In this document: one piece after another, positions 3,491 to 20,947 of the stretch
How positions within the stretch are numbered: the stretch's first letter is position 1
Layout: every line of letters begins with the position of its first letter
Assembly: GCA_045655005.1 (NCBI GenBank)
Contig: JAZOOJ010000001.1
Span: forward strand, 81,288 to 105,287
Direction of reading: 5' to 3'
Length of the DNA: 24,000 bases
Origin: Clostridia bacterium
Lineage (GTDB): Bacteria; Bacillota; Clostridia; Christensenellales; UBA1242
Notes under the pieces: generated by a model
The model's database searches: none
What the model was told of the DNA's origin: nothing
The model's input: the letters and a program-made list of their open reading frames with translations, nothing else
Translations under genes and position numbers: made by a program

Positions 3491-3511
3491 GTAAATATAT
3501 AATTGACAATG

Positions 3512-3560: not shown

Positions 3561-3571
3561 AATGTAAATTA

Positions 3572-4819: not shown

Positions 4820-4851
4820 AAGCGTTGCCCCCCTTCACTAATTGTGTCTAT

Positions 4852-4880
4852 ATTATACACTACAATATATAAAATTTCAA
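4852..4880 (-). promoter_or_regulatory. Sigma-A type promoter for the 415-aa gene
   Basis: On the minus strand: TTGAAA, 17-nt spacer, TATAAT. Confidence 0.55.
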
Positions 4881-4931
4881 TAGTCTTTTCAAAATTTCTT
4901 ATCTGAAAACGACACAAAAAGTGAAAAAATA

Positions 4932-4966
4932 ATCAAAGCAAGCCTATATTTTAGACTTGCTTTGAT
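4932..4966. terminator. Terminator downstream of the PadR-fusion gene
   Basis: Perfect 11-bp stem ATCAAAGCAAG/CTTGCTTTGAT with A/T runs on both sides. Confidence 0.8.
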
Positions 4967-4975
4967 AGTTTTTTA

Positions 4976-7411
4976 TTAAACGTGGAAACGTTTTGAATTA
5001 AAGAGTAGGGTATATACCAAAGTATGAATTGGAAGATAAAGTGTACAAATTGCTGGCAAATACCATAATAAATGGTTGTAATCAATTTGAGTAAAACTGT
5101 ACAGTCCAAATGGAATATTGACTGCGTAAATAATGACTAAGCATTGAACGGCAAACAGCACAGAGAATATAATTGCAACTTTTGCAGAATACCTAGGTTT
5201 AACTTTCTTGGTTTGATTTAATAAAAAGATTACTGTAAAAACAATTGGAATTAATATCATCGCTCCTAAACAACTAAACAAGAAGAATGATGCAGGAAGG
5301 GCTGAAGGCACATACCTTAAGTCAGTGTAGCCAATTGGTCCAGCGATTAAATACCCAATTACAAGAAGTAGTGATGTTAGTGCAAAAGAGAACCAACTTG
5401 TAAACATTTTAATTTTATTTGGTAAAATATAATTTTTTGTTTCGGCTGTTTCTTTTGGTCTTCTTTCGTAAACTCTAACCTCAATACCTGCATTGTTGAA
5501 ATTTGTCCTTAGGTCATCAATTTTTGTTATCGTTTGTTGGTTGATGTTGTTTGCCTTTGTTGAAGGTGAAAATCTTATTGAGCCATAAGAGGATAGTGTA
5601 TTTAATAATTGACGACTGTCGTTATCTGTGTATTGAGGTACAAAGCTTCGTTTGTTGTCTACAAAAAGGTTCGTTGTAGCATCTGGGTCGTTGTAAATTG
5701 GGTCGTAATTTTGTATTTCAGGTTCAGCATAAACAAAATTGCTTTGCGTTAAGCTTTCGTCTGAATTATTATCAATAATTGAAACTTCATTTCGTGGGTC
5801 TTCGGAAGGTGATAAATATTCATCACGTAAAGCAAGCTCTCTTGCGTTGCTAAATTCTTCATCTCGGTCATAATCATAGGAGTATGAGCTTGTTAATTCA
5901 TCTTCATTTCGTAAAGTGAAATTTTGTGCTTTATAATTTTCAATTTCGTCCTCGGCATCTTCGTTGTTTTCGTCGTCGTCATCATTATTATTGAAGTTAT
6001 TGTAATTACCATAATTAAATCGAACGAAAGGAAGAGGTTCGCCTTGTCCGGAATTATCTTCTTCGGCTCCAAAAATTAATTCAGAAGACTCATCGTCTTG
6101 ATCTTCACTATAACCAAAATTCAGTTTTGTTGAATTAAAATCATTTTCGGGTTCATCTTGCTCCAAATTTGACGGGTCTTCATAGTCTTCGTTTTGTTCT
6201 TCACTTATTAAATCTGACGTCAAATCGCTGTAATTTCTTGAAATTTCAAATTCGTCATCGTTTTCTTCGGCAACGCTGTAAAATGGGGCGTCGTCCAATT
6301 CTTCTTCTAAATCTTCGGAGCTATCAAATTCTAAATCATCGTCAGAATCGTCAGAATTGATGATATTGTCAAATAGTGATGTGTCCAATGTCTGTTCTTT
6401 GGGTTGTTCTTGCGAGAATGTTTCTTCATAGAAGCCTGAGCCACCGACTTCATCTTTTACATTGTCAAAATATGTATTGTTATTTAACTTGTAATCTTTA
6501 AAATTAAATTTGGTAGAATATTTGACATCATTATTCTTGATGACGATATCATCTAATTCATTTTGCGACTCGGTTTGCTCAGATTGGATATCATTTACTG
6601 GCGTTGCTTCATCTTTTACGTTATTAGAAAATATGTTTCTTAATTCTTCACTTTCTTGATTATCAGAAAGTGGGGAGGTTAATATTTGTTCTGGTATTGG
6701 ATTGTCATCATATTGCAAAGCCTTTTCAATCGAGTTAAAAATGTCGAATTGATTTTCGTCAGTATTATAATATTCTTCAACTAGTTTTAAATCTTGCTCA
6801 TCGGTGCCAAAGTCGAGACCTTCATTTTCTTCAATCCCATAAAATTCAGCGAACGGATTAACGACCTTCGTAGATTGAATACCTTGTTCAGAGTTCTCTA
6901 TTTGCGTACTTATAATATTTGTCTGTTCTATTCGTAAATCGTATTGATTTTGTTCTGATGAAGCAGAAGTGCATTGCTCTTGATCAAGTTCTTTTTCTTC
7001 ATCAGTTTTTTTGCGGAATGTTATATTTTCAGTGCCGGTCAAAGGAATAAAGTTTGTTGTTACTTCTGGCAAAACATCGTCGGCATTTTCAGCAATAAGA
7101 TTGTCAATTATTGACCTTGAAGACAGCCACTCACGCATATTATTATCGTACTCTTGACGACCCAAATCGGTCAATTTATAATAATGCCTTTTACCGCCAA
7201 TATCGCTGTTCACCCAGTATGCAGATATAAATCCTTGACCTTCAAGCCGTTTTAAACAACTGTATAATGTAGGTTGCTTTAACTCATAGGTGCCATTGCT
7301 TCTGGTTTCAATTTCTTTTATAATCTCATACCCGTATTTATCTCCGCTTGCAAGCGTTTTTAAAATTATTGTATCCACATGCCCACGGATTAAATCTGAA
7401 TCAATTGCCAT
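4976..7411 (-). CDS. PadR-family winged-helix regulator fused to a long acidic low-complexity linker and a C-terminal multi-pass membrane domain
   Basis: The N-terminus RGHVDTIILKTLASGDKYGYEIIKEI...LKQPTLYSCLKRLEGQGFISAYW...GGKRHYYKLTDLG is a textbook PadR motif. About 550 aa rich in D/E/N/S follow, then roughly 5 hydrophobic helices at the C-terminus. I prefer the ATG at 7411 (AAAGGAG upstream) over the track's TTG at 7447. Confidence 0.8.
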   Translation of the reverse strand: MAIDSDLIRGHVDTIILKTLASGDKYGYEIIKEIETRSNGTYELKQPTLYSCLKRLEGQGFISAYWVNSDIGGKRHYYKLTDLGRQEYDNNMREWLSSRSIIDNLIAENADDVLPEVTTNFIPLTGTENITFRKKTDEEKELDQEQCTSASSEQNQYDLRIEQTNIISTQIENSEQGIQSTKVVNPFAEFYGIEENEGLDFGTDEQDLKLVEEYYNTDENQFDIFNSIEKALQYDDNPIPEQILTSPLSDNQESEELRNIFSNNVKDEATPVNDIQSEQTESQNELDDIVIKNNDVKYSTKFNFKDYKLNNNTYFDNVKDEVGGSGFYEETFSQEQPKEQTLDTSLFDNIINSDDSDDDLEFDSSEDLEEELDDAPFYSVAEENDDEFEISRNYSDLTSDLISEEQNEDYEDPSNLEQDEPENDFNSTKLNFGYSEDQDDESSELIFGAEEDNSGQGEPLPFVRFNYGNYNNFNNNDDDDENNEDAEDEIENYKAQNFTLRNEDELTSSYSYDYDRDEEFSNARELALRDEYLSPSEDPRNEVSIIDNNSDESLTQSNFVYAEPEIQNYDPIYNDPDATTNLFVDNKRSFVPQYTDNDSRQLLNTLSSYGSIRFSPSTKANNINQQTITKIDDLRTNFNNAGIEVRVYERRPKETAETKNYILPNKIKMFTSWFSFALTSLLLVIGYLIAGPIGYTDLRYVPSALPASFFLFSCLGAMILIPIVFTVIFLLNQTKKVKPRYSAKVAIIFSVLFAVQCLVIIYAVNIPFGLYSFTQIDYNHLLWYLPAICTLYLPIHTLVYTLLFNSKRFHV

Positions 7412-7537
7412 AAAGATTTTTGCTCCTTTGATTGAAAATAATGACAATAAGCCTATTATTAATCAATATAATTATATCTTTTTTATTTAAACGATGTCAA
7501 TTAAATAAATCTATCTTGTAAATCTTTTTAATTTTTA

Positions 7538-10423: not shown

Positions 10424-11038
10424 CTAAAATTTACGAAGTAATCCAGTTACGACTCCTAAAATTGTGCAATTTTCAACAATGATTGGTTCCATAAAATCAT
10501 TTTCAGGTTGAAGTCTTATATGCCCGTCTTCTTTATAAAATCGTTTAACTGTTGCGCTGTCATCGATTAAAGCAACAACAATTTCACCATTTCTTGCAGT
10601 ATTTTGCTTTTTGACGATTATTTTATCGCCATTAAAAATGCCTGCATTTATCATACTTTCACCTGATACCGTTGTCGCAAATAATTCATCTGAATTAAAT
10701 AATGATTTAGGCAAGCACAAATTTTCTTCCAAATTCTCTGTCGCAAGAATTGGAGTTCCTGCAGCAACCGTTCCAAGCAGTGGGGCGTAGGTTATTTCTG
10801 ATGGATTTATTACAGATTTTTTTATGCCAACAACTTCAATCGCACGATTTTTTGTGCTTGAACGCCTAATATGACCTTGTTGTTCAAGTTTATCAAGATA
10901 ATAGTGGGCAGTGGCAGAAGAACTTACATTTAGTTCTTTGCAAATTTCACGCACAGTAGGTGGATAACCAAACTGATTTACAAAATTGGTTATAAATTGC
11001 AATGTTTTATTCAATTTATCTTGCGTAGTCTTTGCCAT
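10424..11038 (-). CDS. lexA: LexA repressor (S24 peptidase)
   Basis: N-terminal LexA DNA-binding domain (FGYPPTVREI...SSSATAHYYLDKLEQQGHIRR), Ala-Gly cleavage site (VAAGTP), catalytic Ser in SGESM and Lys in VKRF. The ATG at 11038 has SD GAGGGA; the track's upstream start is unlikely. Confidence 0.95.
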   Translation of the reverse strand: MAKTTQDKLNKTLQFITNFVNQFGYPPTVREICKELNVSSSATAHYYLDKLEQQGHIRRSSTKNRAIEVVGIKKSVINPSEITYAPLLGTVAAGTPILATENLEENLCLPKSLFNSDELFATTVSGESMINAGIFNGDKIIVKKQNTARNGEIVVALIDDSATVKRFYKEDGHIRLQPENDFMEPIIVENCTILGVVTGLLRKF

Positions 11039-11094
11039 AAAATCCCTCAAAAAATGTGTAGTCAAATAACTCTTGGAATTATTATACTACACAA

Positions 11095-11122
11095 ATTATA
11101 GAAATGCAAAACATTTGTTCAA
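11095..11122 (-). promoter_or_regulatory. lexA promoter with overlapping SOS (Cheo-type) box
   Basis: Minus strand: TTGAAC-16 nt-TATAAT. A GAAC-AAAT-GTTT box (plus-strand 11109-11120, AAACATTTGTTC) overlaps the -35 and spacer. It has one core mismatch to GAAC-N4-GTTC. Confidence 0.65.
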
Positions 11123-11152
11123 AAAATTTAAACAAAATTTTACCTATTATTG

Positions 11153-11181
11153 TTGAACAAAAATTCATCTTGTGTTATAAT
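11153..11181 (+). promoter_or_regulatory. Promoter of the His/Cys-rich gene with overlapping SOS-like box
   Basis: TTGAAC (11153-11158), 17-nt spacer, TGt-TATAAT (11173-11181). GAAC-AAAA-ATTC (11155-11166) overlaps the -35 and has one core mismatch to the Cheo box. Confidence 0.6.
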
Positions 11182-11212
11182 GCTGGGTAATAAATTTAGG
11201 AGTGTATTAAAA

Positions 11213-11533
11213 ATGGAAGAACAACATCATCACCACGATTGCGATTGTCACAACCATACACAACATAGCGATTGCAACTGCGGTTCTCATTCACATCAAA
11301 ACGATAAAAAGGATATTCAAAAGAAAAAATATAAAGATTTTGAGTTTGACGACGAAACCGATTTTACCTGTGATTTAGACCCAACAAAAATATGTGATAA
11401 TTGCGGAAAGTGCCTGGATGCTTTTAATACAGATAAAGAGGGCTATGTGCAAATTCAAATCGATAAAATCGAAAAAGGTGATAGCACCCTTCAAGACCTT
11501 TACAAAATGTATGGGCTTGATGATAATCAATAA
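11213..11533 (+). CDS. Small His/Cys-rich protein (106 aa), unknown function, probably metal-binding
   Basis: ATG at 11213 with SD AGGAG. The N-terminus is MEEQHHHHDCDCHNHTQHSDCNCGSHSH, with a second Cys cluster CDNCGKC. No TM segment. The track's TTG at 11150 lies inside the promoter. Confidence 0.75.
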   Translation: MEEQHHHHDCDCHNHTQHSDCNCGSHSHQNDKKDIQKKKYKDFEFDDETDFTCDLDPTKICDNCGKCLDAFNTDKEGYVQIQIDKIEKGDSTLQDLYKMYGLDDNQ

Positions 11534-12568
11534 TTAATCTCTAAGTTTTACTTTGTTTGCAACGTTTTTACGTAAGTCTTCTGAAATGGCAGCATAGTGT
11601 TTTTTAGTGGTGTTTACATCTTTATGCCCCAAAACGTCTGCAACGATGTAAATATCTTGAGTTTCACGATAAAGTTCAGTACCATACGTACTCCTCAATT
11701 TATGAGGAGTAATTTTTTTTAGTGGGGTGGTTGCACTTGCATATTTTTTCACAAGTAATTGAACAGTCCTAACATTAATACGTCTGTTTTGAAGTGATAA
11801 AAAAACCGCAGGCTCATTTCTTGCTTGCTTATTTTCACTACGTCTTACTAGGTATGAAAGCAGAGCATCACGAACTTCATCTCCAAAATATACAATTTCT
11901 TGATTTCCGCCTTTTCGGGTAATCTTTATGCCGTTCACATCAAAATCCAGATCATCAAGATTAAGACCCACACACTCTGAAACACGAATTCCTGTACCAA
12001 GCATTAGCGTAATAATTGCGACATCTCTTTCTTTTGTGTATTGATGAAAGGCTTTCTCTCGGTCGGTAAGCGAAGACCCTGCCTCTGTAATGGTAATAAG
12101 TTTTGCGACTTCGTCTGATTCAAGTTTAATAATTGGCTTTTCATGTAGTTTGGGCATTTTTACTTTTTGAGTTACATTCTCATTAATCATTTCTTTGTTA
12201 TAAAAATAAGTGAAAAATGACTTAATTGTAGACAATTTCCTAGATTTACCTTGCTCTCCATTAGAATATTCTTTATTATCATATGAATAATGCGACAAAT
12301 AACTAAGAAAATTCTCTATTGTCTGAGCCGAAATCACATTCAAATCTGCTGGTTCAAGTTGACGAAGATCTTTATCAAACAATTCTGTTTCTGTCATTAG
12401 ATATTCAAAAAACACCCTGAGGTCATAGGCATAATTCAGCCTGGTGAGTGGGGAAGTAGATTGCTCAACACCTACAAAAAAGATTTCTGCAAATATGGGC
12501 AATTCTTTTAAAATTTCACGAGTTTTTAATATGCAGTTGTCTGCACGAGTTTCAAAATAATTTTTCAT
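11534..12568 (-). CDS. Tyrosine recombinase, XerS-like single Xer-type recombinase (about 344-349 aa)
   Basis: Catalytic signature: GTGIRVSE (Arg), TPHKLRSTY (H-x-x-R), LGHKDVNTTKKHY (His/Tyr). The size, the N-terminal domain and the ITRKGGNQEIV segment resemble streptococcal XerS as I recall it. Its stop abuts the stop of the convergent upstream gene (TAA|TTA). The start is ambiguous: ATG 12568 (leaderless geometry) or GTG 12583. Confidence 0.8.
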   Translation of the reverse strand: MKNYFETRADNCILKTREILKELPIFAEIFFVGVEQSTSPLTRLNYAYDLRVFFEYLMTETELFDKDLRQLEPADLNVISAQTIENFLSYLSHYSYDNKEYSNGEQGKSRKLSTIKSFFTYFYNKEMINENVTQKVKMPKLHEKPIIKLESDEVAKLITITEAGSSLTDREKAFHQYTKERDVAIITLMLGTGIRVSECVGLNLDDLDFDVNGIKITRKGGNQEIVYFGDEVRDALLSYLVRRSENKQARNEPAVFLSLQNRRINVRTVQLLVKKYASATTPLKKITPHKLRSTYGTELYRETQDIYIVADVLGHKDVNTTKKHYAAISEDLRKNVANKVKLRD

Positions 12569-12574
12569 AAATTT

Positions 12575-12603
12575 ATTATACACAACTCCTAAGTTATTTA
12601 CAA
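12575..12603 (-). promoter_or_regulatory. Promoter of the recombinase gene
   Basis: Minus strand: TTGTAA, 17-nt spacer, TATAAT, then 6 nt to the ATG at 12568. Confidence 0.45.
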
Positions 12604-12613
12604 ACGATTTTTA

Positions 12614-12628
12614 ATCTTTTCGCAAAAT
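12614..12628. promoter_or_regulatory. Candidate recombinase-binding (dif-like) site just upstream of the recombinase promoter
   Basis: ATCTTTTCGCAAAAT equals the reverse complement of the 34-bp att repeat (ATCTTTT-AAGACTT-CGCAAAAT) with the central 7 nt absent. It shares the exact 10-mer ATTTTGCGAA with both att repeats. Confidence 0.3.
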
Positions 12629-12906
12629 ACTTTTTTGGTTTTATATCAAACTAAATAATTTAAGCACAAACATAAATAAATTATTATAACACAGAGAGAA
12701 TTTCAATATTTATACAAAAACTATTCTGTGCCTGTTATGTAATGATATTGTGTGAGAGAGAGATATATAGCAAAAGATATGTATAAAACACGCATTGATT
12801 TTGTTTAATGTATTTTTAAAGCGTTCTGTCACAGAATACAACAAAAACAATGATCAAATTATTAAAGAAATTCTGAGATAAATACATTGATAATGGATAA
12901 CTAAAC

Positions 12907-12959
12907 TTTGTACGATTTCTGACGGAATGAATAAAAATTTTCTGAGCAAATCGTACAAA
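12907..12959. repeat. Perfect 12-bp inverted repeat with a 29-nt loop in non-coding DNA
   Basis: TTTGTACGATTT (12907-12918) and AAATCGTACAAA (12948-12959). Each arm is adjacent to a CTGA. Confidence 0.7.
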
Positions 12960-13140
12960 AATTTGTGTGGAAATATTATAATAAATACACAACATATTTT
13001 ATAGAGTTTACTCATGTAAAACTAATACGATTTATTATAAATTGGTGAATCAAAATTATATAAACAATAGTAAAATTAACGACAGACTTGGAAGATGTCA
13101 AAATTTTAAGATTTTCTAGCAAATAATCATAAATTAAATA

Positions 13141-13162
13141 AAATGCCAAAAAAATGCCAAAA
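13141..13162 (+). repeat. Tandem 11-mer x2 (AAATGCCAAAA)
   Basis: Two perfect adjacent copies 30 nt to the left of the left att repeat. Confidence 0.7.
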
Positions 13163-13191
13163 TTTGAGTAATTTTCGCCTTATAATTTCGT

Positions 13192-13225
13192 AAAATCTGC
13201 ATTTTGCGAAGTCTTAAAAGATGTC
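13192..13225 (+). repeat. Left 34-bp direct repeat (candidate attL)
   Basis: AAAATCTGCATTTTGCGAAGTCTTAAAAGATGTC; 33/34 identical to 20217-20250. Confidence 0.85.
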
Positions 13226-13253
13226 TTTATTATAAAAAAGTTCTTTCCTATTG

Positions 13254-14102
13254 TCAAGCAAATTCTTCATTATTTTTAAAAAAATTTATTTGACGCATAA
13301 TTCTTTCGAATATCTCTCTTGAAATCCCTACCCTACTGGCTGAATTTTGCACAAATGGTTGAAGACTTTTCTGTTTATCTTTTCCGAGTTGTTTAAAATA
13401 AAACATAGGATCATCTGACATTGAAAGTAATTTCAAAAGGACTAAATCAGTTTTTGAAAGTTTAACCATATCAAACATATCTAAGTCTTTAAAAAAAACA
13501 ACTTCTGGAAATTGTGTCATAAATATATCATAATCAATCTTATTTGACGTTATTTCAAGACGAGTCAATGAATAGTCAAGTTTACTTTCAATAGTTTTAT
13601 TGTACAGTTTACAACGACCAAATTCAGAATCAGATCCGAGATATTCAGTAACATTTTCGCCAGAAGAGTCAAATGAATGACGCTTATGAACTCTTCTATC
13701 TTTCTTTAAATAAACCAAAGAACGCTTACAAGGAATATCAATCGAAATATCATAATTAACCATCTCGCAATCTTGCCAGCGTCTGCGAAGAAAAAATAAG
13801 ACCGAACTTAATTCACGAGAATAACCAACTTTATTAGGGTTGAACTGAACAAAACAACTAAAGAAATCTTTTTTTGAAAGTCCATTAAAACAAAGACCAA
13901 CTGAAAAAGAATTTTCTTTTATATATATCGTAAATAATTCACGATAATTAAATGGTTTAACCGAAAAAGAATGCTTATGCTCAAATCTTCTTAAATAGTC
14001 CATTATTTCAAAACAAGATTCTTGTGTAATTTTGAATTTATAACGAACCATATCAAGACTATAAATCAATTTATTTTCAGACGTTGGAAAATAATAAGAT
14101 AA
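13254..14102 (-). CDS. Rolling-circle replication initiator, Rep_trans-like (gene II equivalent)
   Basis: Motifs reminiscent of PF02486: LDMVRYKF near the N-terminus, VQFNPNKV, YLGSDSEFGRCKLYNK and LTRLEI. I prefer the ATG at 14102 (SD AGGTG 4 nt upstream). The track's ATG at 14222 overlaps a TATAAT and has no SD. Confidence 0.6.
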   Translation of the reverse strand, partial: LSYYFPTSENKLIYSLDMVRYKFKITQESCFEIMDYLRRFEHKHSFSVKPFNYRELFTIYIKENSFSVGLCFNGLSKKDFFSCFVQFNPNKVGYSRELSSVLFFLRRRWQDCEMVNYDISIDIPCKRSLVYLKKDRRVHKRHSFDSSGENVTEYLGSDSEFGRCKLYNKTIESKLDYSLTRLEITSNKIDYDIFMTQFPEVVFFKDLDMFDMVKLSKTDLVLLKLLSMSDDPMFYFKQLGKDKQKSLQPFVQNSASRVGISREIFERIMRQINFFKNNEEFA

Positions 14103-14498
14103 CATATCACACCTATCCACCCTACTATTTTTTACTAAAAATGCGGAAAACCGCACGACTTGGCACCTTGTTAGACGTAGGTGCGAAAAACGTTTTTTAT
14201 TTTTTATTTTGTACGTAGACATTATAGTGTTTACGTAGTCAAGATAAAGAACCTTGACGAAAGGCTAATCAAGTGCGTAATGCACTATGGATGAAACTTT
14301 AAATGTAGAAACTCGCATTGCTACCTTGAGAAAAACTAAAACCTTGACATTTTAACCTAACATTAGGGCATCGCCCTAATAACCCAATAACGCAAGGCTC
14401 AGAATTGCAAGCAGTAGAAAAGACCTTTAAAATTACTTGATTTTGATATTGTAATTGTGATAGAATTGTAAAAAAAACAAAAAGGGAAAAATAAAAAA
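14103..14498. other. Structured intergenic region: candidate replication origin, packaging signal and divergent promoters
   Basis: Hairpins TGCGG-AAAA-CCGCA (14142-14155), GCACCT/AGGTGC (14163-14184), AGTGC-GTAAT-GCACT (14272-14286) and ATTAGGGC-ATC-GCCCTAAT (14362-14380). Palindrome AAAACGTTTT. ACGTAG x3 (14175, 14213, 14233). AACCTTGAC x2 (14250, 14340). Confidence 0.5.
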
Positions 14499-15182
14499 GT
14501 GGGAAGAAGAAAACAAAAAAAACAAGATACAGCTTCAGCAATAGGAATACTATTTGTTATAGCTATTTGTATTGCGTTGATAAAAATAATAGCACCAATA
14601 CTCATTGCAACAGCAGTAATTGTAATAATTATTAAAATTGTAAAAAAAATCAAAGCAAAAAAAACATATACAAACAAAGAAAAAATATATTACGAAGATC
14701 TAAATGAAGACGAACCTATTGACAATCTACAATTTAAAACTAATAATGAGACATATATTGATAAAGAAAAATACCAATTAAGCAAAAAAAAATACACCAA
14801 GAAAGAAGAATATCAAACAAATTGTGAAAAATATTATTACAAAATAATAAAAGAAGAATTTGAAACTAAATATGATATATTCCCACAAGTTCCATTATCA
14901 TCTGTCATAAAAAAGAATAAAGACTTTGAAAAACAATATCAAAACGAACTATTCAGAATAATAGATTTTGGAATTTTTGAGAAAGAAACACAAAAACCCT
15001 TATTGCTAATAGAAATTAACGACAAAACACATAAACAGCAAAATAGGATTAAAAGGGACAATAAAATAAAAGAAATCTGTAATAATGCAAACATAAAATT
15101 AATTACATTTTGGACAGATGAAAATAAAAATAAAGAGTATATTATCAATAAAATAAAAAACACATTAGATTACATTTTATAA
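14499..15182 (+). CDS. Membrane-anchored DUF2726 (restriction-endonuclease-fold) protein; accessory gene on the opposite strand
   Basis: GTG start with AAGGGA upstream. N-terminal hydrophobic helices, then YDIFPQVPLSSVI...FRIIDFGIFEKETQKPLLLIEINDKTHKQQNRIKRDNKIKEICNNANIKLITF, which fits the DUF2726 pattern. Confidence 0.6.
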   Translation: MGRRKQKKQDTASAIGILFVIAICIALIKIIAPILIATAVIVIIIKIVKKIKAKKTYTNKEKIYYEDLNEDEPIDNLQFKTNNETYIDKEKYQLSKKKYTKKEEYQTNCEKYYYKIIKEEFETKYDIFPQVPLSSVIKKNKDFEKQYQNELFRIIDFGIFEKETQKPLLLIEINDKTHKQQNRIKRDNKIKEICNNANIKLITFWTDENKNKEYIINKIKNTLDYIL

Positions 15183-15192
15183 TATTTTAGGG

Positions 15193-15218
15193 GGGAGCGA
15201 CATAAAGTCGCTCCCTTT
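15193..15218. terminator. Bidirectional terminator between the DUF2726 gene and the convergent phage operon
   Basis: 9-bp GC-rich stem GGGAGCGAC/GTCGCTCCC, loop ATAAA, followed by TTT. Confidence 0.8.
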
Positions 15219-15232
15219 AACCCTCAAAAAAA

Positions 15233-15652
15233 TTAAAAAAATATAAACTTGGCGACCCAAATAACATAAATAATTACTTGTAAAAGGCCTCTTGCACAAA
15301 ACTCAATAACAGAATAAAACCCAGTTGCCATGTTAAAAAAATCACGAATAAAATTAAAAGCACCCCAGTCGGAAACTATCTCAAGAGAATCAAACCACGT
15401 CATAGACATTGAAACACTGGGAGCATCAGCAACGGATGAAAGCAGACCACCAAAAGTTATAAAACCATTACCAAGTAAAGTCTTAAATAAAGAAACAACA
15501 AGAACAAGACCAAGAACAAGAGAGAGAACATTAAAACCCTGCCTAACATCATTAGATGACACATTAGAGTCTATTTTTTCTTTTGGTTTTTTTTGAGTAA
15601 CAGTAACATTAGAACCACCACGTGAAATCACAGTAATTTCTTTTTTTGACAT
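15233..15652 (-). CDS. Phage membrane protein (139 aa), pVI-position candidate
   Basis: ATG at 15652 preceded by GAGGTGG. Several hydrophobic helices. Last gene of the minus-strand operon. Confidence 0.6.
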   Translation of the reverse strand: MSKKEITVISRGGSNVTVTQKKPKEKIDSNVSSNDVRQGFNVLSLVLGLVLVVSLFKTLLGNGFITFGGLLSSVADAPSVSMSMTWFDSLEIVSDWGAFNFIRDFFNMATGFYSVIEFCARGLLQVIIYVIWVAKFIFF

Positions 15653-15663
15653 AAACCACCTCA

Positions 15664-16626
15664 CTAAATTAAAAGCCTAACAACTGAAACTATAAAAGCC
15701 AAAGTTAATAACCCAGTAAAGAACCCAGCAAGATTAACACCAAGCAACTCAAAATTAAACAAACCCATAAATGCTTGCACCGGAGCATCTATAACAGCAG
15801 AAATCAAACTAAAGAAAGTATAGCTATTGGAAGCGTTTGCACCTGCTTGATAACCATTGTTATAGCCTATAACTTCGCCAGCTCTAGACCCTGCAGAATA
15901 ACCATTATCATAACCGACATTTTCACCAATTGAATAACCGGAATCATATCCTTCCTTAAAAACATCATCATCTAAAAATGTGCCGACTAAATAATAATAT
16001 CGGTCAGTATATTCAAAATACGAAGCAATATGAGCATTTTCACCGGTAATATCGCAAGGTATGCGAATAGAAAAGACTTTATCATTTTCATCATAGTAGT
16101 CAATGTAAGTATATATACGCATAGTGTGAGTATTTAACATAGATTCAGTGCTATAAATACGAACTTTTTTTACAAAACAGTTAAAACCATAATCACAACC
16201 GAGTGCATATGAAAAATAGTAATGATTAGCATTATTAACAGTCTGATGAAAAGAAGTATATGTAAGAGGCTCACCCTCATTACTAAAATTAACTTGTTGT
16301 GTAGTATTTACTGAATCATAACCGATACCAGGATAAAAATATTTAAATTCAATATCCGACTCAATATAGCCATTGTAATTATTCAAATCAACTTCAAAAT
16401 TAAAAAAGCCTAATGCATAACCGACACCTTCTTGGATTGAACTAGAAACTGTAACAATTGAACTACCATTAAAAGAATAACCAGTAGAGACTTCATCAGC
16501 ACTAGCAATCATTGTTTTAGGTTGAAATTTGGGTAAAAAAGGGCTTATACAAAGCATCAAAGCACTTGCACAAGCAATAAATATACTAGATATTCTTTTA
16601 ATTATTTTTCGTTTGTTTTCGACCAT
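15664..16626 (-). CDS. Secreted, C-terminally anchored protein with Gly/Tyr-rich repeats; pIII-like adsorption protein candidate
   Basis: N-terminal signal-like segment (IFIACASALMLCISPF), repeats GYDSGYSIG / VGYDNGYSAG / IGYNNGYQAG, and a C-terminal TM (FFTGLLTLAFIVSVV). The start is ATG 16626 or GTG 16632. Confidence 0.55.
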   Translation of the reverse strand: MVENKRKIIKRISSIFIACASALMLCISPFLPKFQPKTMIASADEVSTGYSFNGSSIVTVSSSIQEGVGYALGFFNFEVDLNNYNGYIESDIEFKYFYPGIGYDSVNTTQQVNFSNEGEPLTYTSFHQTVNNANHYYFSYALGCDYGFNCFVKKVRIYSTESMLNTHTMRIYTYIDYYDENDKVFSIRIPCDITGENAHIASYFEYTDRYYYLVGTFLDDDVFKEGYDSGYSIGENVGYDNGYSAGSRAGEVIGYNNGYQAGANASNSYTFFSLISAVIDAPVQAFMGLFNFELLGVNLAGFFTGLLTLAFIVSVVRLLI

Positions 16627-16753
16627 AAACACCCCGCTCCGCCAGTTGTTTTTTAATCAACCTTTGTTTTAAAAAATATTGAATAACACCAAGTGCTATA
16701 TTTTCCAAAAGGCAACCAATAAAGGCACCAATTATAATTAAAATTAGATTCAT
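16598..16753 (-). CDS. Small single-TM protein (51 aa), not in the supplied ORF track
   Basis: MNLILIIIGAFIGCLLENIALGVIQYFLKQRLIKKQLAERGVYGRKQTKNN. Its ATG overlaps the upstream stop (TAATG) and its 3' end overlaps the pIII-like start. Confidence 0.5.
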   Translation of the reverse strand: MNLILIIIGAFIGCLLENIALGVIQYFLKQRLIKKQLAERGVYGRKQTKNN

Positions 16754-17133
16754 TATTTAGACACCATCCTTTTTAAGATTTCTATTTCGTTATCGATTAT
16801 ATCAAAACATTTATCTCTATCAAACGCACCACCAACAATATCATCTGAAATATTATATACTATTGGATATTCTTTGCTTTGTATTAAAAACAACTCTTTC
16901 AATTTCTTTAACAGTACTACTGCGAACAAGATTTTGTCTTTGTTTCTATAAATTTGTAGGTATTTATTACATTCTGTTAAATCTTTGATTTGTTCATCTT
17001 TCTCTGCAAGTTTTACTTCTAAGTCGGCAAATTCTTTTCCTAAGCACTCTACAAAATGAATTGTAACCGAAACACCTTGATTATCAACTACTTCATAATT
17101 ACCATTTTTAAGATTTTCTATTGCTTTATTCAT
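16753..17133 (-). CDS. Phage hypothetical protein (126 aa), coiled-coil-like
   Basis: ATG 10 nt after GGGAG, tightly packed in the operon. No family recognised. Confidence 0.65.
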   Translation of the reverse strand: MNKAIENLKNGNYEVVDNQGVSVTIHFVECLGKEFADLEVKLAEKDEQIKDLTECNKYLQIYRNKDKILFAVVLLKKLKELFLIQSKEYPIVYNISDDIVGGAFDRDKCFDIIDNEIEILKRMVSK

Positions 17134-17135
17134 TT

Positions 17136-17462
17136 TTACTCATCTCCCTGCATCTTCTTTAAACAGTTATCACAAACGACTTTACGTTTGTATTCATAAA
17201 ACCAATCCGTCCAACAACAGAAACCACATAACTCACATTTACATTGACCGTTTCCAGACAACTTAGTAGGTCGATAATCAGTTAACTCAGCCTCTAAATC
17301 TTTAATTTTTTTTATGTGTTTTTGATGCCACATCTTATACCAATCTAAAGCATCTAATAAATCATCAACTGCAGATTGATCAAAGATGTAAGATTTATCA
17401 AAATCAGTAGCACCTATAGGAATACATTCATTTTGAACATAATCATCATAATTACGTTTCAT
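17136..17462 (-). CDS. Phage hypothetical protein with a Cys cluster (zinc-ribbon-like), about 108 aa
   Basis: CKCELCGFCC...CDNC. I prefer the ATG at 17462, which has the same GGGAGATGAGTAAAA-ATG junction as the next gene, over the track's 17471. Confidence 0.6.
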   Translation of the reverse strand: MKRNYDDYVQNECIPIGATDFDKSYIFDQSAVDDLLDALDWYKMWHQKHIKKIKDLEAELTDYRPTKLSGNGQCKCELCGFCCWTDWFYEYKRKVVCDNCLKKMQGDE

Positions 17463-17463
17463 T

Positions 17464-17817
17464 TTACTCATCTCCCTGTGTGAATTTATTCATCCATTTT
17501 TTTGCAAGTTTTGGTATAAAAAGAAGAAAATCTACAAAAATATGGGCTATAAATACATTAATGTAATAAGTGAAAAATACTAGCAAATCTGTATTTTTAA
17601 ATAATGGCAAAATACCATCAACACCGAATATCTGACTTAAACTTGTATACGCAATAGAATTCTCAGCAATATTAAGTCCAATAGAGTCAAAAATTGTACC
17701 AAATTCAAAAGCAGTACCACCTTTAAATAAAAGTATCAAAAAGGCAAATATAGGTATAAAATACACTATATTCCAAAATATGGTCTCAGCCATATGATTA
17801 ATCGTTCTTTTTCTCAT
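17464..17817 (-). CDS. Phage integral membrane protein (117 aa)
   Basis: SD GGGGTGGTG, three hydrophobic helices. Its start overlaps the end of the ATPase gene by 20 nt. Confidence 0.65.
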   Translation of the reverse strand: MRKRTINHMAETIFWNIVYFIPIFAFLILLFKGGTAFEFGTIFDSIGLNIAENSIAYTSLSQIFGVDGILPLFKNTDLLVFFTYYINVFIAHIFVDFLLFIPKLAKKWMNKFTQGDE

Positions 17818-18622
17818 CTACACCACCCCGCAACCTAGATTTTCTAAAACTGACTATGTTATTTGCTTTCAAAGTTTTAGCAGTAATAACATTCTTTTCT
17901 TCTTCAAGTCCGTCAGTCAAACTTGAATAACAGTAACAATCAAAATACTTCCAAGTCTTTTTTGGTATAATTACTCGTCTTAACTTTTGCTCCACATCCT
18001 CATCTTGAACGTTTATGGTCGACTTATCGTCTGAATATCTACATTCTTGAACATGAGCCAAAAGGAAAAATGGAATCCATTTTGTCAAATGATGTACATA
18101 AATATACTCTGACAAGCAACGCTTAATTGAATAATGAGTATCTGAAATACATTGAGTATCATATATAATTACACCACCCTTAGTTGAATGACCTATCAAT
18201 TTATTAAATAGTAACAATTGCTCGTTTAACTCCATATCTTTAATCAATTGACTATCAGCAACCAAAGACGCTTCACAAATATAAATTACCGAACCATAAA
18301 CAAAACGTGTTTTTCGTGTCAATAAATCCGTAGTTATTGGTACATAAGGAACCGATAACGGAATATTCGAGTATAACAAAGGCAATTCAAGTAAAGGTTT
18401 TTTAAACAACTTGCGGAAAAAGTTATTAATCTTAACACGCCTTGTACGTCTTTTAAACTCAGACATAGCAATCGCAACACTCAATGTAGATTTACCGCAT
18501 TTCACACCACCGCTAACGAGAGCCATAGCTCCAATTTTTGGAACTTTAAATTTTGATTGTATTTTTTTGATAATAAATAGCACAACGGCTATTATAATTA
18601 AAATTAAAATTGAATTATCCAT
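17798..18622 (-). CDS. Zot/pI-like P-loop morphogenesis ATPase with an N-terminal TM helix
   Basis: N-terminal TM (aa 5-18), Walker A GGVKCGKST (aa 38-46), Walker-B-like VIYICEAS, and GHSTKGGVIIYDTQ, which resembles the Zot-family RH.G.D.i.iTQ segment. Confidence 0.55.
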   Translation of the reverse strand: MDNSILILIIIAVVLFIIKKIQSKFKVPKIGAMALVSGGVKCGKSTLSVAIAMSEFKRRTRRVKINNFFRKLFKKPLLELPLLYSNIPLSVPYVPITTDLLTRKTRFVYGSVIYICEASLVADSQLIKDMELNEQLLLFNKLIGHSTKGGVIIYDTQCISDTHYSIKRCLSEYIYVHHLTKWIPFFLLAHVQECRYSDDKSTINVQDEDVEQKLRRVIIPKKTWKYFDCYCYSSLTDGLEEEKNVITAKTLKANNIVSFRKSRLRGGVDEKKND

Positions 18623-18629
18623 TAATTTT

Positions 18630-18664
18630 AAAGAATAAAAGGCTAGATTTTTATGTCTAGCCTT
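18630..18664 (-). terminator. Rho-independent terminator immediately after the coat-like gene
   Basis: Perfect 9-bp stem AAGGCTAGA/TCTAGCCTT (18639-18664), followed on the minus strand by TTATTCTTT. Confidence 0.8.
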
Positions 18665-18676
18665 ATAAACTTGATA

Positions 18677-18928
18677 CTATCTATTTCTTGCACCAAGACT
18701 TGTGAAGAAATTAAGTACCCAGCGACATAGGCCCAAACCTAACGAAATCGCTGCAAAAGCAATTATGCAAGTACCTAGAACAGATAGTCCGGCAGTGCCA
18801 CCCTCAGCAGTTGTGAAGAAGATGCTTTGAGCCAAGGTTGAAAGCCCTTCACCAACACCAGTAGCAATTCCAGAAATACCAGAAACTAAGATTTCAATAA
18901 TTGCAGTAACTAACGCAGTACCAGTCAT
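18677..18928 (-). CDS. Small hydrophobic protein (83 aa); major coat protein candidate
   Basis: Strongest SD in the element (GGAGGTG). Hydrophobic N-terminal segment, central TTAEGGTAG, a TM helix, then a basic C-terminus (RWVLNFFTSLGARNR). A terminator follows. Confidence 0.5.
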   Translation of the reverse strand: MTGTALVTAIIEILVSGISGIATGVGEGLSTLAQSIFFTTAEGGTAGLSVLGTCIIAFAAISLGLGLCRWVLNFFTSLGARNR

Positions 18929-18990
18929 TCTTTTACACCTCCATAAATTATTTTTTTATATAAGAGGTGCGAAACTGATTTATCTTCCTA

Positions 18991-19021
18991 GTGTGAGTAG
19001 GTCAATAGACCAGTCTCACAC
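18991..19021. other. Imperfect hairpin in the gap upstream of the coat-like gene
   Basis: GTGTGAG-ta-GGTC-aata-GACC-agt-CTCACAC. Confidence 0.5.
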
Positions 19022-19043
19022 ACTTTTATAACCACACTAAAAA

Positions 19044-19181
19044 TTAATCAGATTTACTATCAGAATTTTCTGTATTTTCTTTTAATTGTTTACGTTTTCT
19101 AACATCTTTAACTATTCCAAAAATCTGATAACCGACAAAAGCAAGTAAACCAACAACTAATAAGACACTAATTATTTTCAT
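19044..19181 (-). CDS. Small single-TM protein (45 aa), not in the supplied ORF track; minor coat (pVII/pIX-like) candidate
   Basis: MKIISVLLVVGLLAFVGYQIFGIVKDVRKRKQLKENTENSDSKSD. SD GAGAGGTG. Its start lies inside the end of the preceding small ORF. Confidence 0.55.
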   Translation of the reverse strand: MKIISVLLVVGLLAFVGYQIFGIVKDVRKRKQLKENTENSDSKSD

Positions 19182-19335
19182 CTTGTACACCTCTCTTAGA
19201 TTTTAATGAAGCATATTGAACTCTTAAATCATTGTATTTTTTTTCTACTTGATCAAGTTTCTTTTCGCTTTGTCCTAATAAAACAAGAGTAGAAATATAA
19301 CCGACTAAAACAATTAAATCAAATATAATAGTCAT
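19168..19335 (-). CDS. Small single-TM protein (55 aa), not in the supplied ORF track; minor coat candidate
   Basis: MTIIFDLIVLVGYISTLVLLGQSEKKLDQVEKKYNDLRVQYASLKSKRGVQDENN. GGGGG SD. The ATG lies 2 nt after the upstream stop (TAGTAATG). Confidence 0.5.
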   Translation of the reverse strand: MTIIFDLIVLVGYISTLVLLGQSEKKLDQVEKKYNDLRVQYASLKSKRGVQDENN

Positions 19336-19337
19336 TA

Positions 19338-19538
19338 CTATTTACCCCCATTAAGTTTTTTAAATTCAATCAAACCGGCATCGGCAAGAGTTTTAATTGT
19401 ACCTTTGTCAGCCTTAAAAACAGGTTTTAATTGAATCGTTTGAGAACCGATTCTCCACATCGGTGCGATATACTTAACTTTTTCGTTTGTTTCCTTGATA
19501 ACGCACTCTTTTTCTTCCAGATAAATTTTGTTTTCCAT
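19338..19538 (-). CDS. Small soluble protein (66 aa); gene V-position ssDNA-binding protein candidate
   Basis: SD GAAGGAG. The assignment rests on size and position (after the replication module, before the coat genes), not on a recognised motif. Confidence 0.35.
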   Translation of the reverse strand: MENKIYLEEKECVIKETNEKVKYIAPMWRIGSQTIQLKPVFKADKGTIKTLADAGLIEFKKLNGGK

Positions 19539-19582
19539 AAAAATACTCCTTCGGTCATATAGACCATTTTTAAAATTTTGTT

Positions 19583-19630
19583 GTTGGCATACAGTGGGAA
19601 GAACAAATTAAAAACTGACCATATGCCAAC
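19583..19630. other. Long imperfect hairpin in an intergenic gap
   Basis: GTTGGCATA-CAGT ... ACTG-acc-a-TATGCCAAC (9 + 4 bp). A smaller hairpin GGTC-ATATA-GACC lies at 19553-19565. Confidence 0.5.
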
Positions 19631-19668
19631 GATTTATAATATCTACCCCACCTCACAGGTAGTTATTA

Positions 19669-20127
19669 TCACCTGTAACGACTTGAAAATCGACTTTGAT
19701 AATACAAGTCTTTGTGAAATTGAGCCTGCAACTCTTTAAAATTTAAATCAGAATTACTTGATTTACGAATTTTAATTTTCCCAAAATATTCAGAAAAACC
19801 CAACAAATTCCAAGTGAAACGATTTAAGTTAAATTCAATACCAAGTTTTTTATAAACATCTAGCATTTCAATGCATCTAGTTAAATCTTCAACATAATGC
19901 ATAACTTCAACGGCTTTCTTAAAAGACTTAAATTCAGTCTTATAATCTGAAACACTTGAAACTTGATAACAATTTTCAGAAGTTCGTTTTATAATGAAGA
20001 AAATTGAACAAAGCTTTGACGTTAAAGCGTAATCAGTATGAGAAATTATTTTTATCTTAAAATTCTCACGAATATAACGATTATTCAAAAACTCTTCATT
20101 TAAAAAATAATAATGATTTTTAGACAT
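19669..20127 (-). CDS. Phage hypothetical protein (152 aa), first gene of the minus-strand operon
   Basis: SD GGGGGA 7 nt upstream of the ATG. No family recognised. Confidence 0.65.
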   Translation of the reverse strand: MSKNHYYFLNEEFLNNRYIRENFKIKIISHTDYALTSKLCSIFFIIKRTSENCYQVSSVSDYKTEFKSFKKAVEVMHYVEDLTRCIEMLDVYKKLGIEFNLNRFTWNLLGFSEYFGKIKIRKSSNSDLNFKELQAQFHKDLYYQSRFSSRYR

Positions 20128-20139
20128 CTTCTTTCCCCC

Positions 20140-20182
20140 AAAAATAAAAAAGTCCTAAAAGATAAAATTAATCTTTTAAGAC
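20140..20182 (-). terminator. Terminator-like or operator hairpin built from the att 12-mer
   Basis: Minus strand: GTCTTAAAAGAT-TAATTTT-ATCTTTTAGGAC (12-bp stem with one G-U pair), followed by TTTTTTATTTTT. It lies between a TATAAT (20184-20189) and the SD of the 152-aa gene. Confidence 0.6.
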
Positions 20183-20216
20183 CATTATACTCCACTCGTT
20201 TTGTGGCTCACTTAAC

Positions 20217-20250
20217 AAAATCTGCATTTTGCGAAGTCTTTAAAGATGTC
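20217..20250 (+). repeat. Right 34-bp direct repeat (candidate attR)
   Basis: AAAATCTGCATTTTGCGAAGTCTTTAAAGATGTC. The single difference from the left copy is at 20241 (T, versus A at 13216). Confidence 0.85.
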
Positions 20251-20466
20251 CAATTTGTTTTATTTTTGAAATTTTTGTTATTCTCTATTCTTACTATATT
20301 TGGGTTGGTTGATTTTTTCTTGCTTACATTGTTTCACTTCTTCCCTGCCCTGTTATGACAGACTAAATTATTAATGATAAATTTATTAAGTATGGCAAAT
20401 TTGTTTGATTATTTGAAAGTTATTTGGTAAACTAAGTTTATTGATATATTTGAGGTGTAAATTGTA

Positions 20467-20865
20467 ATGAATTATAAAGATAGATTAAAAGCACATCTTA
20501 GAATTAAAAACACAGTAATATATTTATGTGGTGCAGCAGTTATTGCCTGTGTAATATTGCTGTTGGTGTTTCTAAAACAAGAAAAGACCGGGAATCTTAT
20601 TTATTTGGTTGTGGTTGCGGGAGCTTCACTAGTTATTATCAAGCCTTTGTCAAAGGCTGCAAAGAAAGATCGTGAACAATTGAAATGCTATGAAGATAAA
20701 GAAAAGGCCGAGCGTAAAGCACGTGCCCGTGGTCAAAATCCAACTAATAAATTTGGAGCAATAGGAACAAATCGTACAAATGCACTTCTTGGCATAACAA
20801 CCACAAATGAACAAGAAGAAAAGAAAAACGAAGACCCTATCGGTAGATTCAAATATAAAAAATAG
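20467..20865 (+). CDS. Small membrane protein (132 aa), two TM helices and a basic tail
   Basis: SD GAGGTG, two hydrophobic helices, K/R/E-rich C-terminal half. Confidence 0.65.
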   Translation: MNYKDRLKAHLRIKNTVIYLCGAAVIACVILLLVFLKQEKTGNLIYLVVVAGASLVIIKPLSKAAKKDREQLKCYEDKEKAERKARARGQNPTNKFGAIGTNRTNALLGITTTNEQEEKKNEDPIGRFKYKK

Positions 20866-20884
20866 ATGCAAATTAGGTAAAAGA

Positions 20885-20920
20885 AAAAGACAATACATTG
20901 AATTAATGTGTTGTCTTTTT
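20885..20920. terminator. Bidirectional terminator
   Basis: Stem GACAATACA/TGTGTTGTC (one G-U pair), flanked by an A-run and a T-run. Confidence 0.75.
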
Positions 20921-20947
20921 GATTTGATATATTTGTAATATTAAATC

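Follow-up and report, generated by a model that had tools for sequence, protein, structure and literature searches.

In this work, we describe an integrated phage genome in a stretch of 24,000 nucleotides (the window) from the contig JAZOOJ010000001.1 of a Clostridia bacterium. Gene order, homologies and sequence profiles support reading the block at 13192-20250 as the integrated genome of an inovirus (filamentous phage), which is how a preliminary description, made from the letters of the window, had read it. We consider it probable that the block is a complete inovirus-type prophage which a XerS-like recombinase of the host has integrated at dif. That is, it would be an integrative element exploiting Xer (IMEX). 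The repeats that flank the phage are copies of a dif-like site of the host lineage, beside a xer gene, and the phage therefore most likely borrows the host Xer enzyme to integrate. The computational evidence comprises the repeats, the gene content and its homologies, the dif-like site with its linkage to xer and to a switch in GC skew, recurrent insertion in other hosts and an un-integrated junction in relatives.

Boundaries of the element

Two 34-bp direct repeats, identical at 33 of 34 positions, enclose 6,991 bp (13226-20216), for a unit size of 7,025 bp. The left repeat lies 28 nt from the stop codon of the replication gene rep (13254), and the right one 89 nt from the start (20127) of an open reading frame (ORF) of 152 amino acids (aa). 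On the coordinates, the identity and both gaps, the preliminary description was accurate. With up to three mismatches allowed, the window contains the 34-mer only twice, and it did not occur in 100 shuffles. The G+C content is slightly lower within the block and just outside it (0.25-0.34) than in the rest of the window (0.30-0.36).

The repeat core reads TTCGYAAAA-TCTGCA-TTTTGCGAA on the + strand. At the left end, which we call attL, the core has one mismatch to the core of the host lineage, TTCGCAAAA-N6-TTTTGCGAA. The sole mismatch between the two 34-mers (A at 13216, T at 20241) lies outside the arms, which fits recombination between two similar, non-identical sites and not duplication of a target site. 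The 34-mer had been taken for a plain att site; what had been missed is that it contains a dif-like site of the host lineage, beside a gene for a Xer recombinase.

The DNA flanking the repeats (12584-13184 and 20251-20947) is AT-rich (G+C about 0.25-0.29). The left flank is nearly non-coding, and the right flank holds only one ORF, for a Lys-rich membrane protein of 132 aa. Against the closest species in the comparison (locus L005), the two flanks gave no match save 27 nt beside xer. They could be relics of earlier insertions. A 12-mer, GTCTTAAAAGAT, has four copies in the window at up to one mismatch: two within the outer part of the repeats (13211-13222 and 20236-20247) and two in the arms of a hairpin beside the right junction, attR (20152-20163 and 20171-20182). 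The motif may serve to bind a factor of the phage or the host, or may help the attP region to fold when single-stranded.

A dif-like site beside the host xer gene

The host recombinase gene lies outside the element. Its closest solved structures are XerA (4A8E) and XerD (1A0P), and its 349-aa product is the presumed integrase, acting in trans. ORF and family scans found no recombinase gene in the element or in its free relatives. We compared the locus with the best 80 of 582 matching stretches in GTDB species genomes, which represent 80 species. The xer genes of these loci are 53-75% identical, and the hosts are all uncultured gut Clostridia, many of them labelled Christensenellales, Borkfalkia, Onthoplasma or Caccovivens. 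A lexA homologue is present in 48 of the 80, and lexA adjoins xer in the window and in two loci with related prophages (L094 and L102, see below). The 80 loci hold no phage genes, apart from a homologue of one gene of the element (DUF2726) in L020.

Upstream of xer, the related loci carry the palindrome TATTCGCAAAA-N6-TTTTGCGAATA. Searched as TKCGYAAAA-N6-TTTTRCGMA with up to two mismatches, it occurs at 61 sites, spread over 58 of 73 species loci and all within 5 kb on the upstream side of xer, and nowhere in the remaining 962 kb of the same loci. In the 58 loci with a site, the distance to xer has a median of 1,087 nt (range 55-4,679 nt). Mean GC skew changes across the site from +0.084 to -0.059, being greater on the left in 49 of 51 loci (p=6e-10), and the window follows the same trend. 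In direction, this switch is that of a replication terminus. The features used to define dif sites are a length of about 28 bp, a palindromic, intergenic and unique sequence, a place beside xer and a position at a skew switch (PMC9765430). It is the combination of these features that leads us to predict that the repeat core is the dif-like site of the host lineage. From the same computational evidence (a unique site, linked to xer, at a skew switch), the target of integration appears to be the chromosomal dif at the terminus. The palindrome was also considered as a Cheo box and rejected; it is not one.

The surroundings of xer show further features. A lone perfect half-site, TTCGCAAAA, lies at 12619-12627, 36 nt upstream of the xer start codon, with no recognisable partner arm; it may be due to chance, a relic junction or a binding site for the recombinase near the promoter of its own gene. 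Between xer and lexA (10424-11065, - strand), a small His/Cys-rich protein (HHHHDCDCHNHTQHSDCNCGSHSH...) is encoded at 11150-11533 on the + strand. No known family matched it, and 12 related loci conserve its C-terminal half at the equivalent place. Just upstream of lexA, at 11109-11166, are two near-consensus LexA boxes (AAACATTTGTTC and GAACAAAAATTC), which would fit autoregulation. A LexA/SOS box inside the element was considered as well and rejected: there is none, the only near-matches precede lexA at a short distance, and the window has no more matches than chance would give.

In about half of the species, the dif-like site and xer are 1-4.7 kb apart, with variable DNA between them (loci L007-L083, e.g. 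L020, L042, L065 and L074), and L074 has two sites about 1 kb apart. The variable DNA of this interval includes a CD-NTase_C gene in L094 (16249-17121) and in L099 (14666-15610), and in L095 a Cas9-Cas1-Cas2 locus (517-7445) abuts the site. The interval between dif and xer appears to be a hot spot at which other elements or defence genes are inserted.

Recurrent insertion and free forms

Long contigs of other hosts carry four further prophages of this clade (L094, L095/96, L099 and L102/103/104), all of them upstream of the same xer gene; xer is followed by lexA in L094 and L102/L103. The two junctions of each prophage share at least the first four bases of a central region that is specific to the host: TGCAGA in the window, GACA.. 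in L094, GACAGC in L095, GACAA. in L099 and CACAGG in L102. L094, L095/96 and L102/103 each pair an intact flanking site with a degenerate one, and the second junction of L099 is a shorter repeat of 14 nt. The site nearest to xer is the intact one in the window, L094, L099 and L102; L095 shows the opposite order. Of the distal sites, those of the window and L102 are degenerate in one arm, and those of L094 and L099 have a 10-nt spacer.

Relatives in free form point the same way. Over most of the element, the Logan contig L084 has a nucleotide identity of about 90%; its ATPase is 99% identical, and a terminal overlap of 30 nt indicates that the contig closes to a circle of 6,059 nt. Its similarity to the window breaks off precisely where the left repeat has its inner edge (13226). 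Three parts of the element (the DUF2726 gene, a pair of genes for 111- and 126-aa proteins, and the 152-aa gene) are absent from L084, and they are thus accessory cassettes. In two other contigs from two samples, L100 and L101 (74-78% identical), rep, the intergenic site, the 152-aa gene, the 66-aa gene and so on to the coat gene are contiguous. This is the arrangement of the two ends of the window prophage joined together, with the same core, TTCGCAAAATGCAGATTTT, and the topology expected of an un-integrated form. The free forms have a single mimic of dif directly after rep, with one good and one degenerate arm. The unit of 7,025 bp, the closure of L084 and the joined ends in L100 and L101 all agree with a small circular genome (about 5-15 kb). 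Across the window, the four prophages and the free forms, the sequences thus fit an IMEX: no recombinase of its own, an attP that mimics dif, and two dif-like sites bounding the integrated form.

The 274-aa ATPase also matches 13 circular virome genomes in GenBank (4.7-8.5 kb, from pig and rodent faeces, filed under Inoviridae with the gene annotated as Zot), at 38-60% identity in 12 of them and a weaker 25% in the 13th. In three of these genomes the coat protein, the ATPase, a 117-aa protein and the C-terminal third of a 322-aa protein are homologous and collinear with the window, and the replication gene is unrelated. Homologues of the ATPase number more than 1,000 at 90% clustering, with 422 representatives at 50% clustering; they are about 260-320 aa long, and none has a Pfam annotation. 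Viral contigs scanned with the ATPase or Rep as single proteins gave no match. The preliminary description had expected a novel sequence, and this expectation fails against so many homologues, the nearly identical ATPase on a closed 6.06-kb circle and the 12 virome inoviruses. The element is a new member of a well-populated, poorly studied clade; as an inovirus it is not new.

Genes of an inovirus

With one exception, the genes of the block are on the minus strand; the 14 ORFs are all intact, and starts and stops overlap (Table 1). The earlier ORF list was correct apart from the choice of start codons. Pfam and PHROGs scans of the element proteins found no capsid, terminase or tail genes, as had been claimed, and the element has no genes for resistance, mobilisation or partition. 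Family scans (Pfam, PHROGs, NCBIfam, PADLOC) gave nothing useful for the element proteins except DUF2726, so the assignments below draw on profiles, models and position.

The ATPase carries a Walker A motif, GGVKCGKS. A family profile of 54 sequences aligned to canonical pI proteins (M13 gene I, VFJ, a Ralstonia phage and three virome pI proteins) with an hhalign probability of 88.6% (E=2.6e-6), over a stretch from Walker B to the sensor region; an earlier, shallow alignment had reached 27%, and it was the diverse profile that raised this value. A search of PDB sequences with an ATPase profile gave no match. The best solved match to an AlphaFold model of the protein is the N-terminal domain of Zot (2R2A), followed by RecA/RAD51-type ATPases, and several viral entries labelled Zot in BFVD match the model. 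We therefore regard the protein as a probable, remote pI/Zot-like morphogenesis ATPase, which Pfam does not detect.

For the rep protein, a profile of 32 homologues matched staphylococcal RepD-type structures (4CWE/4CWC) at E=1e-13. The motifs EFNPNK, DxAxD and the Tyr of YNK align, and Y207, D158 and D162 are invariant. On this profile match, rep is predicted to be an initiator of rolling-circle replication. Database homologues are called at 283-285 aa, and one call of 285 aa on record is 100% identical. A GC-rich hairpin with a T-run, GTGCGGTTTTCCGCAT, is found at 14141-14156 (- strand), upstream of the Met of the 283-aa form. It may be an origin or terminator element, and its place inside the 5' extension of the 322-aa ORF favours the shorter form of rep.

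The remaining genes fit the inovirus order. The 83-aa protein is 43-56% identical to the ORF immediately upstream of the ATPase in three virome genomes, and its hydropathy, position and homology predict a major-coat-like protein; the terminator that the preliminary description had given this gene was found again as a hairpin at 18664-18639. In the 322-aa pIII-like protein, the hydrophobic segments span residues 10-36 and 296-322, and the C-terminal stretch of about 110 aa is 34-48% identical to the product of the gene at the equivalent position in virome inovirus genomes. The 143-aa protein has no sequence match beyond the clade. For the 66-aa protein, a gene-V role is suggested by position only: its AF2 model is fairly confident (predicted local distance difference test, pLDDT, 82) and had no match in the PDB at E<=1e-3. 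No family in Pfam, PHROGs or PADLOC matched the 152-aa protein, and L084/L085 have an unrelated 82-aa gene in its place. The 126- and 111-aa genes form a variable accessory block, where nucleotide homology to L084 is broken between 16754 and 17460.

The opposite-strand gene for a 227-aa DUF2726 protein had gone unmentioned in the preliminary description. It occupies the identical slot in the L094 prophage (L094 13335-14108), which in the window lies between the pVI-like gene and rep, and PADLOC found no match for its product. Carried by the phage, this protein could act as a nuclease or in exclusion. L020 is otherwise free of phage genes; its copy of DUF2726, 53% identical, lies between dif and xer (6995-7402) and may be an IMEX remnant.

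Upstream of attP in the circular L084 are the same promoter hexamers as in the window, and L100 and L101 have an extended -10 at that place. As single-stranded DNA, the reconstructed attP region folds well (z=-3.3). The hairpin at 20151-20183 may have a role in packaging, origin function or termination. Outside the element, Rfam found only three tRNAs in the window, a cluster (Phe-GAA, Thr-TGT, Tyr-GTA) at 89-340, at the left window end and unrelated to the element.

Table 1. Features of the element and the host recombinase gene (TM, transmembrane; RCR, rolling-circle replication)
Feature	Position	Strand	Basis or remark
Host Xer-family tyrosine recombinase, 349 aa, outside element	11534..12583	-	Pfam Phage_integrase 3e-32
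attL core, predicted reconstituted full dif-like site, ATTTCGTAAAA-TCTGCA-TTTTGCGAAGT	13185..13212		602 nt upstream of xer; read from sequence
Left 34-bp direct repeat	13192..13225		Repeat search and shuffles
Sigma-70-type promoter, perfect TTGACA-17-TATAAT	13229..13257	-	12/12 match; out of prophage via attL toward xer
RCR initiator rep (predicted), RepD/Rep_trans-like	13254..14222	-	ORF 322 aa; likely product 283-285 aa (homologue calls)
DUF2726 protein, 227 aa, membrane-anchored, accessory	14499..15182	+	PF10881 at 1.4e-15; nuclease-like fold family
pVI-position membrane protein, 143 aa	15233..15664	-	Two hydrophobic segments; 3' of pIII-like gene as in relatives
pIII-like protein, 322 aa	15664..16632	-	Signal-like N-terminus, GY-rich repeats, C-terminal anchor
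Three small ORFs: 51 aa (one TM), 126 aa, 111 aa (8 Cys)	16598..17471	-	ORF calls and hydropathy
117-aa membrane protein beside ATPase	17464..17817	-	TM segments; tblastn matches at equivalent position in L001-L003
Morphogenesis ATPase (probable), 274 aa, remote pI/Zot relative	17798..18622	-	N-terminal TM helix, Walker A residues 38-45
Terminator-like hairpin directly 3' of coat gene	18639..18664	-	Hairpin search
Major-coat-like protein, 83 aa	18677..18928	-	Two hydrophobic segments, basic C-terminus (..GARNR)
Two overlapping single-TM ORFs, 55 aa and 48/45 aa	19044..19335	-	Minor-virion-protein position; conserved in L084, L100, L102
66-aa soluble protein, gene-V position	19338..19538	-	AF2 pLDDT 82, beta-hairpin and helix
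152-aa protein, first gene after attP in circular order	19669..20127	-	Homologue after rep-attP in L100/L101
13-bp-stem hairpin between attR and 152-aa gene	20151..20183	-	Arms carry GTCTTAAAAGAT, motif also in outer part of both repeats
attR core, dif-like, xer-proximal arm degenerate and phage-derived, ACTTAACAAAA-TCTGCA-TTTTGCGAAGT	20210..20237		Read from sequence
Right 34-bp direct repeat	20217..20250		Repeat search and shuffles

A model of integration

These observations can be arranged in a simple model. The free form would be a circle of about 7.0 kb, replicated by the RepD/Rep_trans-like nickase and exported through the membrane by the pI/Zot-related ATPase, with the 83-aa protein as coat and the pIII/pVI-like proteins at the ends. 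Its attP would lie directly downstream of rep and consist of a perfect xer-distal arm with 13 further nt, a 6-nt central region (TCTGCA on the + strand) and a degenerate xer-proximal arm. Recombination of attP (GACATCTTTTAAGACTTCGCAAAA-TGCAGA-TTTTGTTAAGT) with the host dif (GACATCTTTAAAGACTTCGCAAAA-TGCAGA-TTTTACGAAAT) would be carried out by the XerS-like recombinase encoded some 600 nt away. The predicted attP contains ...GACATCTTTTAAGACTTCGCAAAATGCAGATTTTGTTAAGTGAG... and the predicted attB ...ATAATTTCGTAAAATCTGCATTTTGCGAAGTCTTTAAAGATGTCCAATTT...; on the simplest account, the substrate would be the double-stranded replicative form, as for IMEXs of the VGJphi/TLCphi type. An inverted pair of dif-like sites in the style of CTXphi was considered as well, and it is not present in the element. 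A one-recombinase system can integrate elements, since plasmids with difSL integrate at the chromosomal difSL without RecA (PMC1914069).

The products would be unequal. The xer-proximal attL would be a full dif and the distal attR a crippled one, so that dimer resolution would be kept and excision slowed. In GGI and TLCphi, one full and one crippled site stabilise the integrated state and keep dimer resolution (PMC5357621). Integration would also act on transcription. In the circle, the consensus promoter would read through attP into the 152-aa gene; in the prophage it would be cut off from the operon that runs from the 152-aa gene to the coat gene and turned toward xer. Dependence on Xer, the order of strand exchange, the effects on the promoter and the production of virions are the parts of this model that we infer.

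A broader reading can be offered tentatively, at somewhat less than even probability. A broad group of gut Clostridia (Christensenellales-like) may resolve dimers by a single-recombinase Xer module, with TATTCGCAAAA-N6-TTTTGCGAATA at the terminus beside xer and lexA often nearby. The large inovirus clade seen in the 422 ATPase clusters at 50% identity would then consist of IMEXs that track the central region of their hosts. Integration itself might be a lysogeny switch without a repressor, because it would cut the consensus promoter from the operon and aim it at xer.

Alternative explanations

Several findings count against integration by Xer at dif, or against the inovirus assignment, and some of them lend support to other accounts. 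The 349-aa recombinase scores best with the NCBIfam XerS model (5.8e-56), at 189.7 bits against a cut-off of 267, so that the XerS equivalog is not reached, and it also falls under the XerC and XerD cut-offs. Many loci moreover have the 1-4.7 kb of variable DNA between site and xer. Both points would suit a recombinase that is no housekeeping Xer and has nothing to do with dimer resolution, i.e. an integrase module with its own att hot spot for mobile elements. We regard this as unlikely: xer is found in all 80 best species loci at the identities given above, 48 of them with a lexA homologue; the skew switches from + to - at the site in 49 of 51 loci; and the nearest solved relatives are XerA and XerD. 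Even if this account were true, the phage would still use a host recombinase in trans. The skew evidence is itself to be read with care, as one control split elsewhere in the loci was not flat and the change of sign is more informative than the size of the drop. Likewise, 'single xer' refers to the 24 kb of host genome in view, and XerC/XerD and a second dif may lie outside them.

A low but appreciable probability goes to a decayed or domesticated inovirus remnant that no longer excises or makes particles. The degenerate arm of attR and the separation of the consensus promoter from the structural operon are what such a remnant might show. In addition, a 24-mer of the repeat core had no match in the metagenome and viral collections, so that no exact empty site or attP of this phage-host pair came up there. 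Against decay stand the 14 intact ORFs with their overlapping starts and stops, an ATPase 99% identical to that of a closed circular contig, and repeats that differ at one base only. A degenerate outer site is, furthermore, normal in IMEXs that are stable yet active, such as TLCphi and GGI (PMC5357621).

The ATPase and rep raise doubts of another kind. The preliminary description had named the Pfam models of Zot (PF05707) and Rep_trans (PF02486) as the check on these two proteins. Direct matches did not appear, and similarity to pI and RepD emerged at the level of profiles. Neither protein matched PF05707, PF02486, a PHROG or an NCBIfam model. PF05707 gave no match at E<=1 for 24 members of the ATPase family, nor at E<=0.05 for 10 more distant ones, which places the family below the Pfam threshold; PF02486 gave none at E<=0.1 for the window rep and weak ones for 13 of 32 homologues (best 9.4e-4). 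The only TM helix of the ATPase is N-terminal (residues 2-24), before Walker A, with none later, unlike M13 pI. It thus departs from the Zot/pI layout of an N-terminal cytoplasmic ATPase, an internal TM helix and a C-terminal periplasmic domain, and confidence in its model is moderate (pLDDT 67). An integrated rolling-circle plasmid, or another non-viral element with a membrane ATPase, could be argued from the failure of the Zot model and from the initiator, as Rep_trans/RepD proteins are typical of pT181-type plasmids and of relaxases of integrative and conjugative elements, and one homologue is named NicK by JGI. This is very improbable given that the module of coat, ATPase and membrane protein is common to virome-derived circular genomes, that the ATPase profile matches pI, and that the element, which lacks resistance, mobilisation and partition genes, has numerous very small TM ORFs, a terminator behind the coat gene and a pIII-like protein.

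Further points concern the site and its surroundings. None of the three virome genomes examined has a dif-like site; L005, the closest species, shares only the xer-side flank, with no synteny on the right; and the identity between attP and host runs 13 nt past the arm, which is more than simple mimicry of a Xer site requires. Since 34 bp of identity exceed a minimal Xer site, the repeats might be thought to be products of a chance similarity at which homologous or illegitimate recombination took place, independently of any site-specific recombinase. We give this hardly any credence. Five independent prophages in different hosts use the same palindromic site, their repeats differ in sequence with each matching the local host site, and the sequences begin to diverge at the edge of the central region or of the proximal arm. 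Integration at dif through the host recombinase is the account that we favour.

Significance

Inoviruses of Gram-positive gut anaerobes have barely been studied, and their mode of integration has so far not been addressed. If our reading is true, the IMEX strategy reaches from proteobacteria to Clostridia and to a one-recombinase system. Through the prophage ends, a candidate dif/Xer pair comes to light for a large uncultured lineage of the gut, as XerL did in Legionella through LME-1. The conserved site also provides a simple search rule for such prophages and other IMEXs in gut metagenomes, and it may serve as a tool for site-specific integration in Clostridia that are hard to manipulate.

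Comparison with known systems

Inoviruses have been catalogued across bacterial and archaeal phyla (Roux et al. 2019, PMC6813254), and prophages of gut Clostridia (Enterocloster/Hungatella) were shown in 2023 to be secreted (PMC10061712). By their description, the gut Clostridia inoviruses of these two papers are likewise 6.5-8.5 kb long and flanked by direct repeats, with a pI homologue and 10-16 small ORFs. Integrase, recombinase, Xer and dif are unmentioned in both papers, and the host of the window belongs to a different, uncultured lineage. The virome genomes ('Inovirus sp.' MT135295 from pig; bajarodino viruses 32, 47, 51 and others from rodent faeces) have the ATPase, coat protein, 117-aa protein and pIII-like C-terminus in common with the window. 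They differ in their replication initiator, in opposite-strand 'repressor' genes and, in the three noted above, in the dif-like site. In pT181-family RepC/RepD (PF02486), the motifs EFNPNK, DxAxD and R/K-hYNK-Tyr align to the window rep over about 210 residues, whereas the window rep alone misses the Pfam model.

IMEXs reviewed to date come from Vibrio, Neisseria and Enterobacter, to which Xanthomonas (XacF1) and a single-recombinase case in Legionella can be added (PMC5357621, PMC5666396, PMC9765430). In the literature, of which subscription journals were mostly outside our coverage, we found no report of an IMEX or a dif-integrating inovirus in Firmicutes/Clostridia, none of an inovirus that exploits XerS/difSL, XerH/difH or XerL/dif, and no published description of this Clostridia dif/xer module. 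VGJphi, TLCphi and CTXphi of Vibrio, XacF1 of Xanthomonas and GGI likewise lack an integrase, have an attP that mimics dif and, once integrated, lie between two dif-like sites (PMC5357621, PMC5666396). TLCphi and GGI share with the window one conserved arm and central region and a degenerate other arm (PMC5357621, PMC5666396). The IMEXs of Gram-negative bacteria depend on a XerCD pair and a 28-bp dif far from the xer genes, whereas the window has a single xer beside a near-perfect palindrome, in a host of Gram-positive type.

In this respect, the window is closer to the one-recombinase systems. XerS/difSL (Streptococcus, Lactococcus) and XerH/difH (Helicobacter, Campylobacter) each have one recombinase of about 350 aa and a dif beside xer, as in the window. 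The site of the window has symmetric arms of 9-11 bp and a 6-bp spacer, whereas difSL is asymmetric and 31 bp long, and the recombinase belongs to a lineage of Christensenellales-like Clostridia, with a score below the XerS equivalog cut-off. The nearest parallel in how the site came to light is XerL/dif and the IMEX LME-1 of Legionella, where, as in the window, the attachment site of a mobile element reveals dif (PMC9765430).

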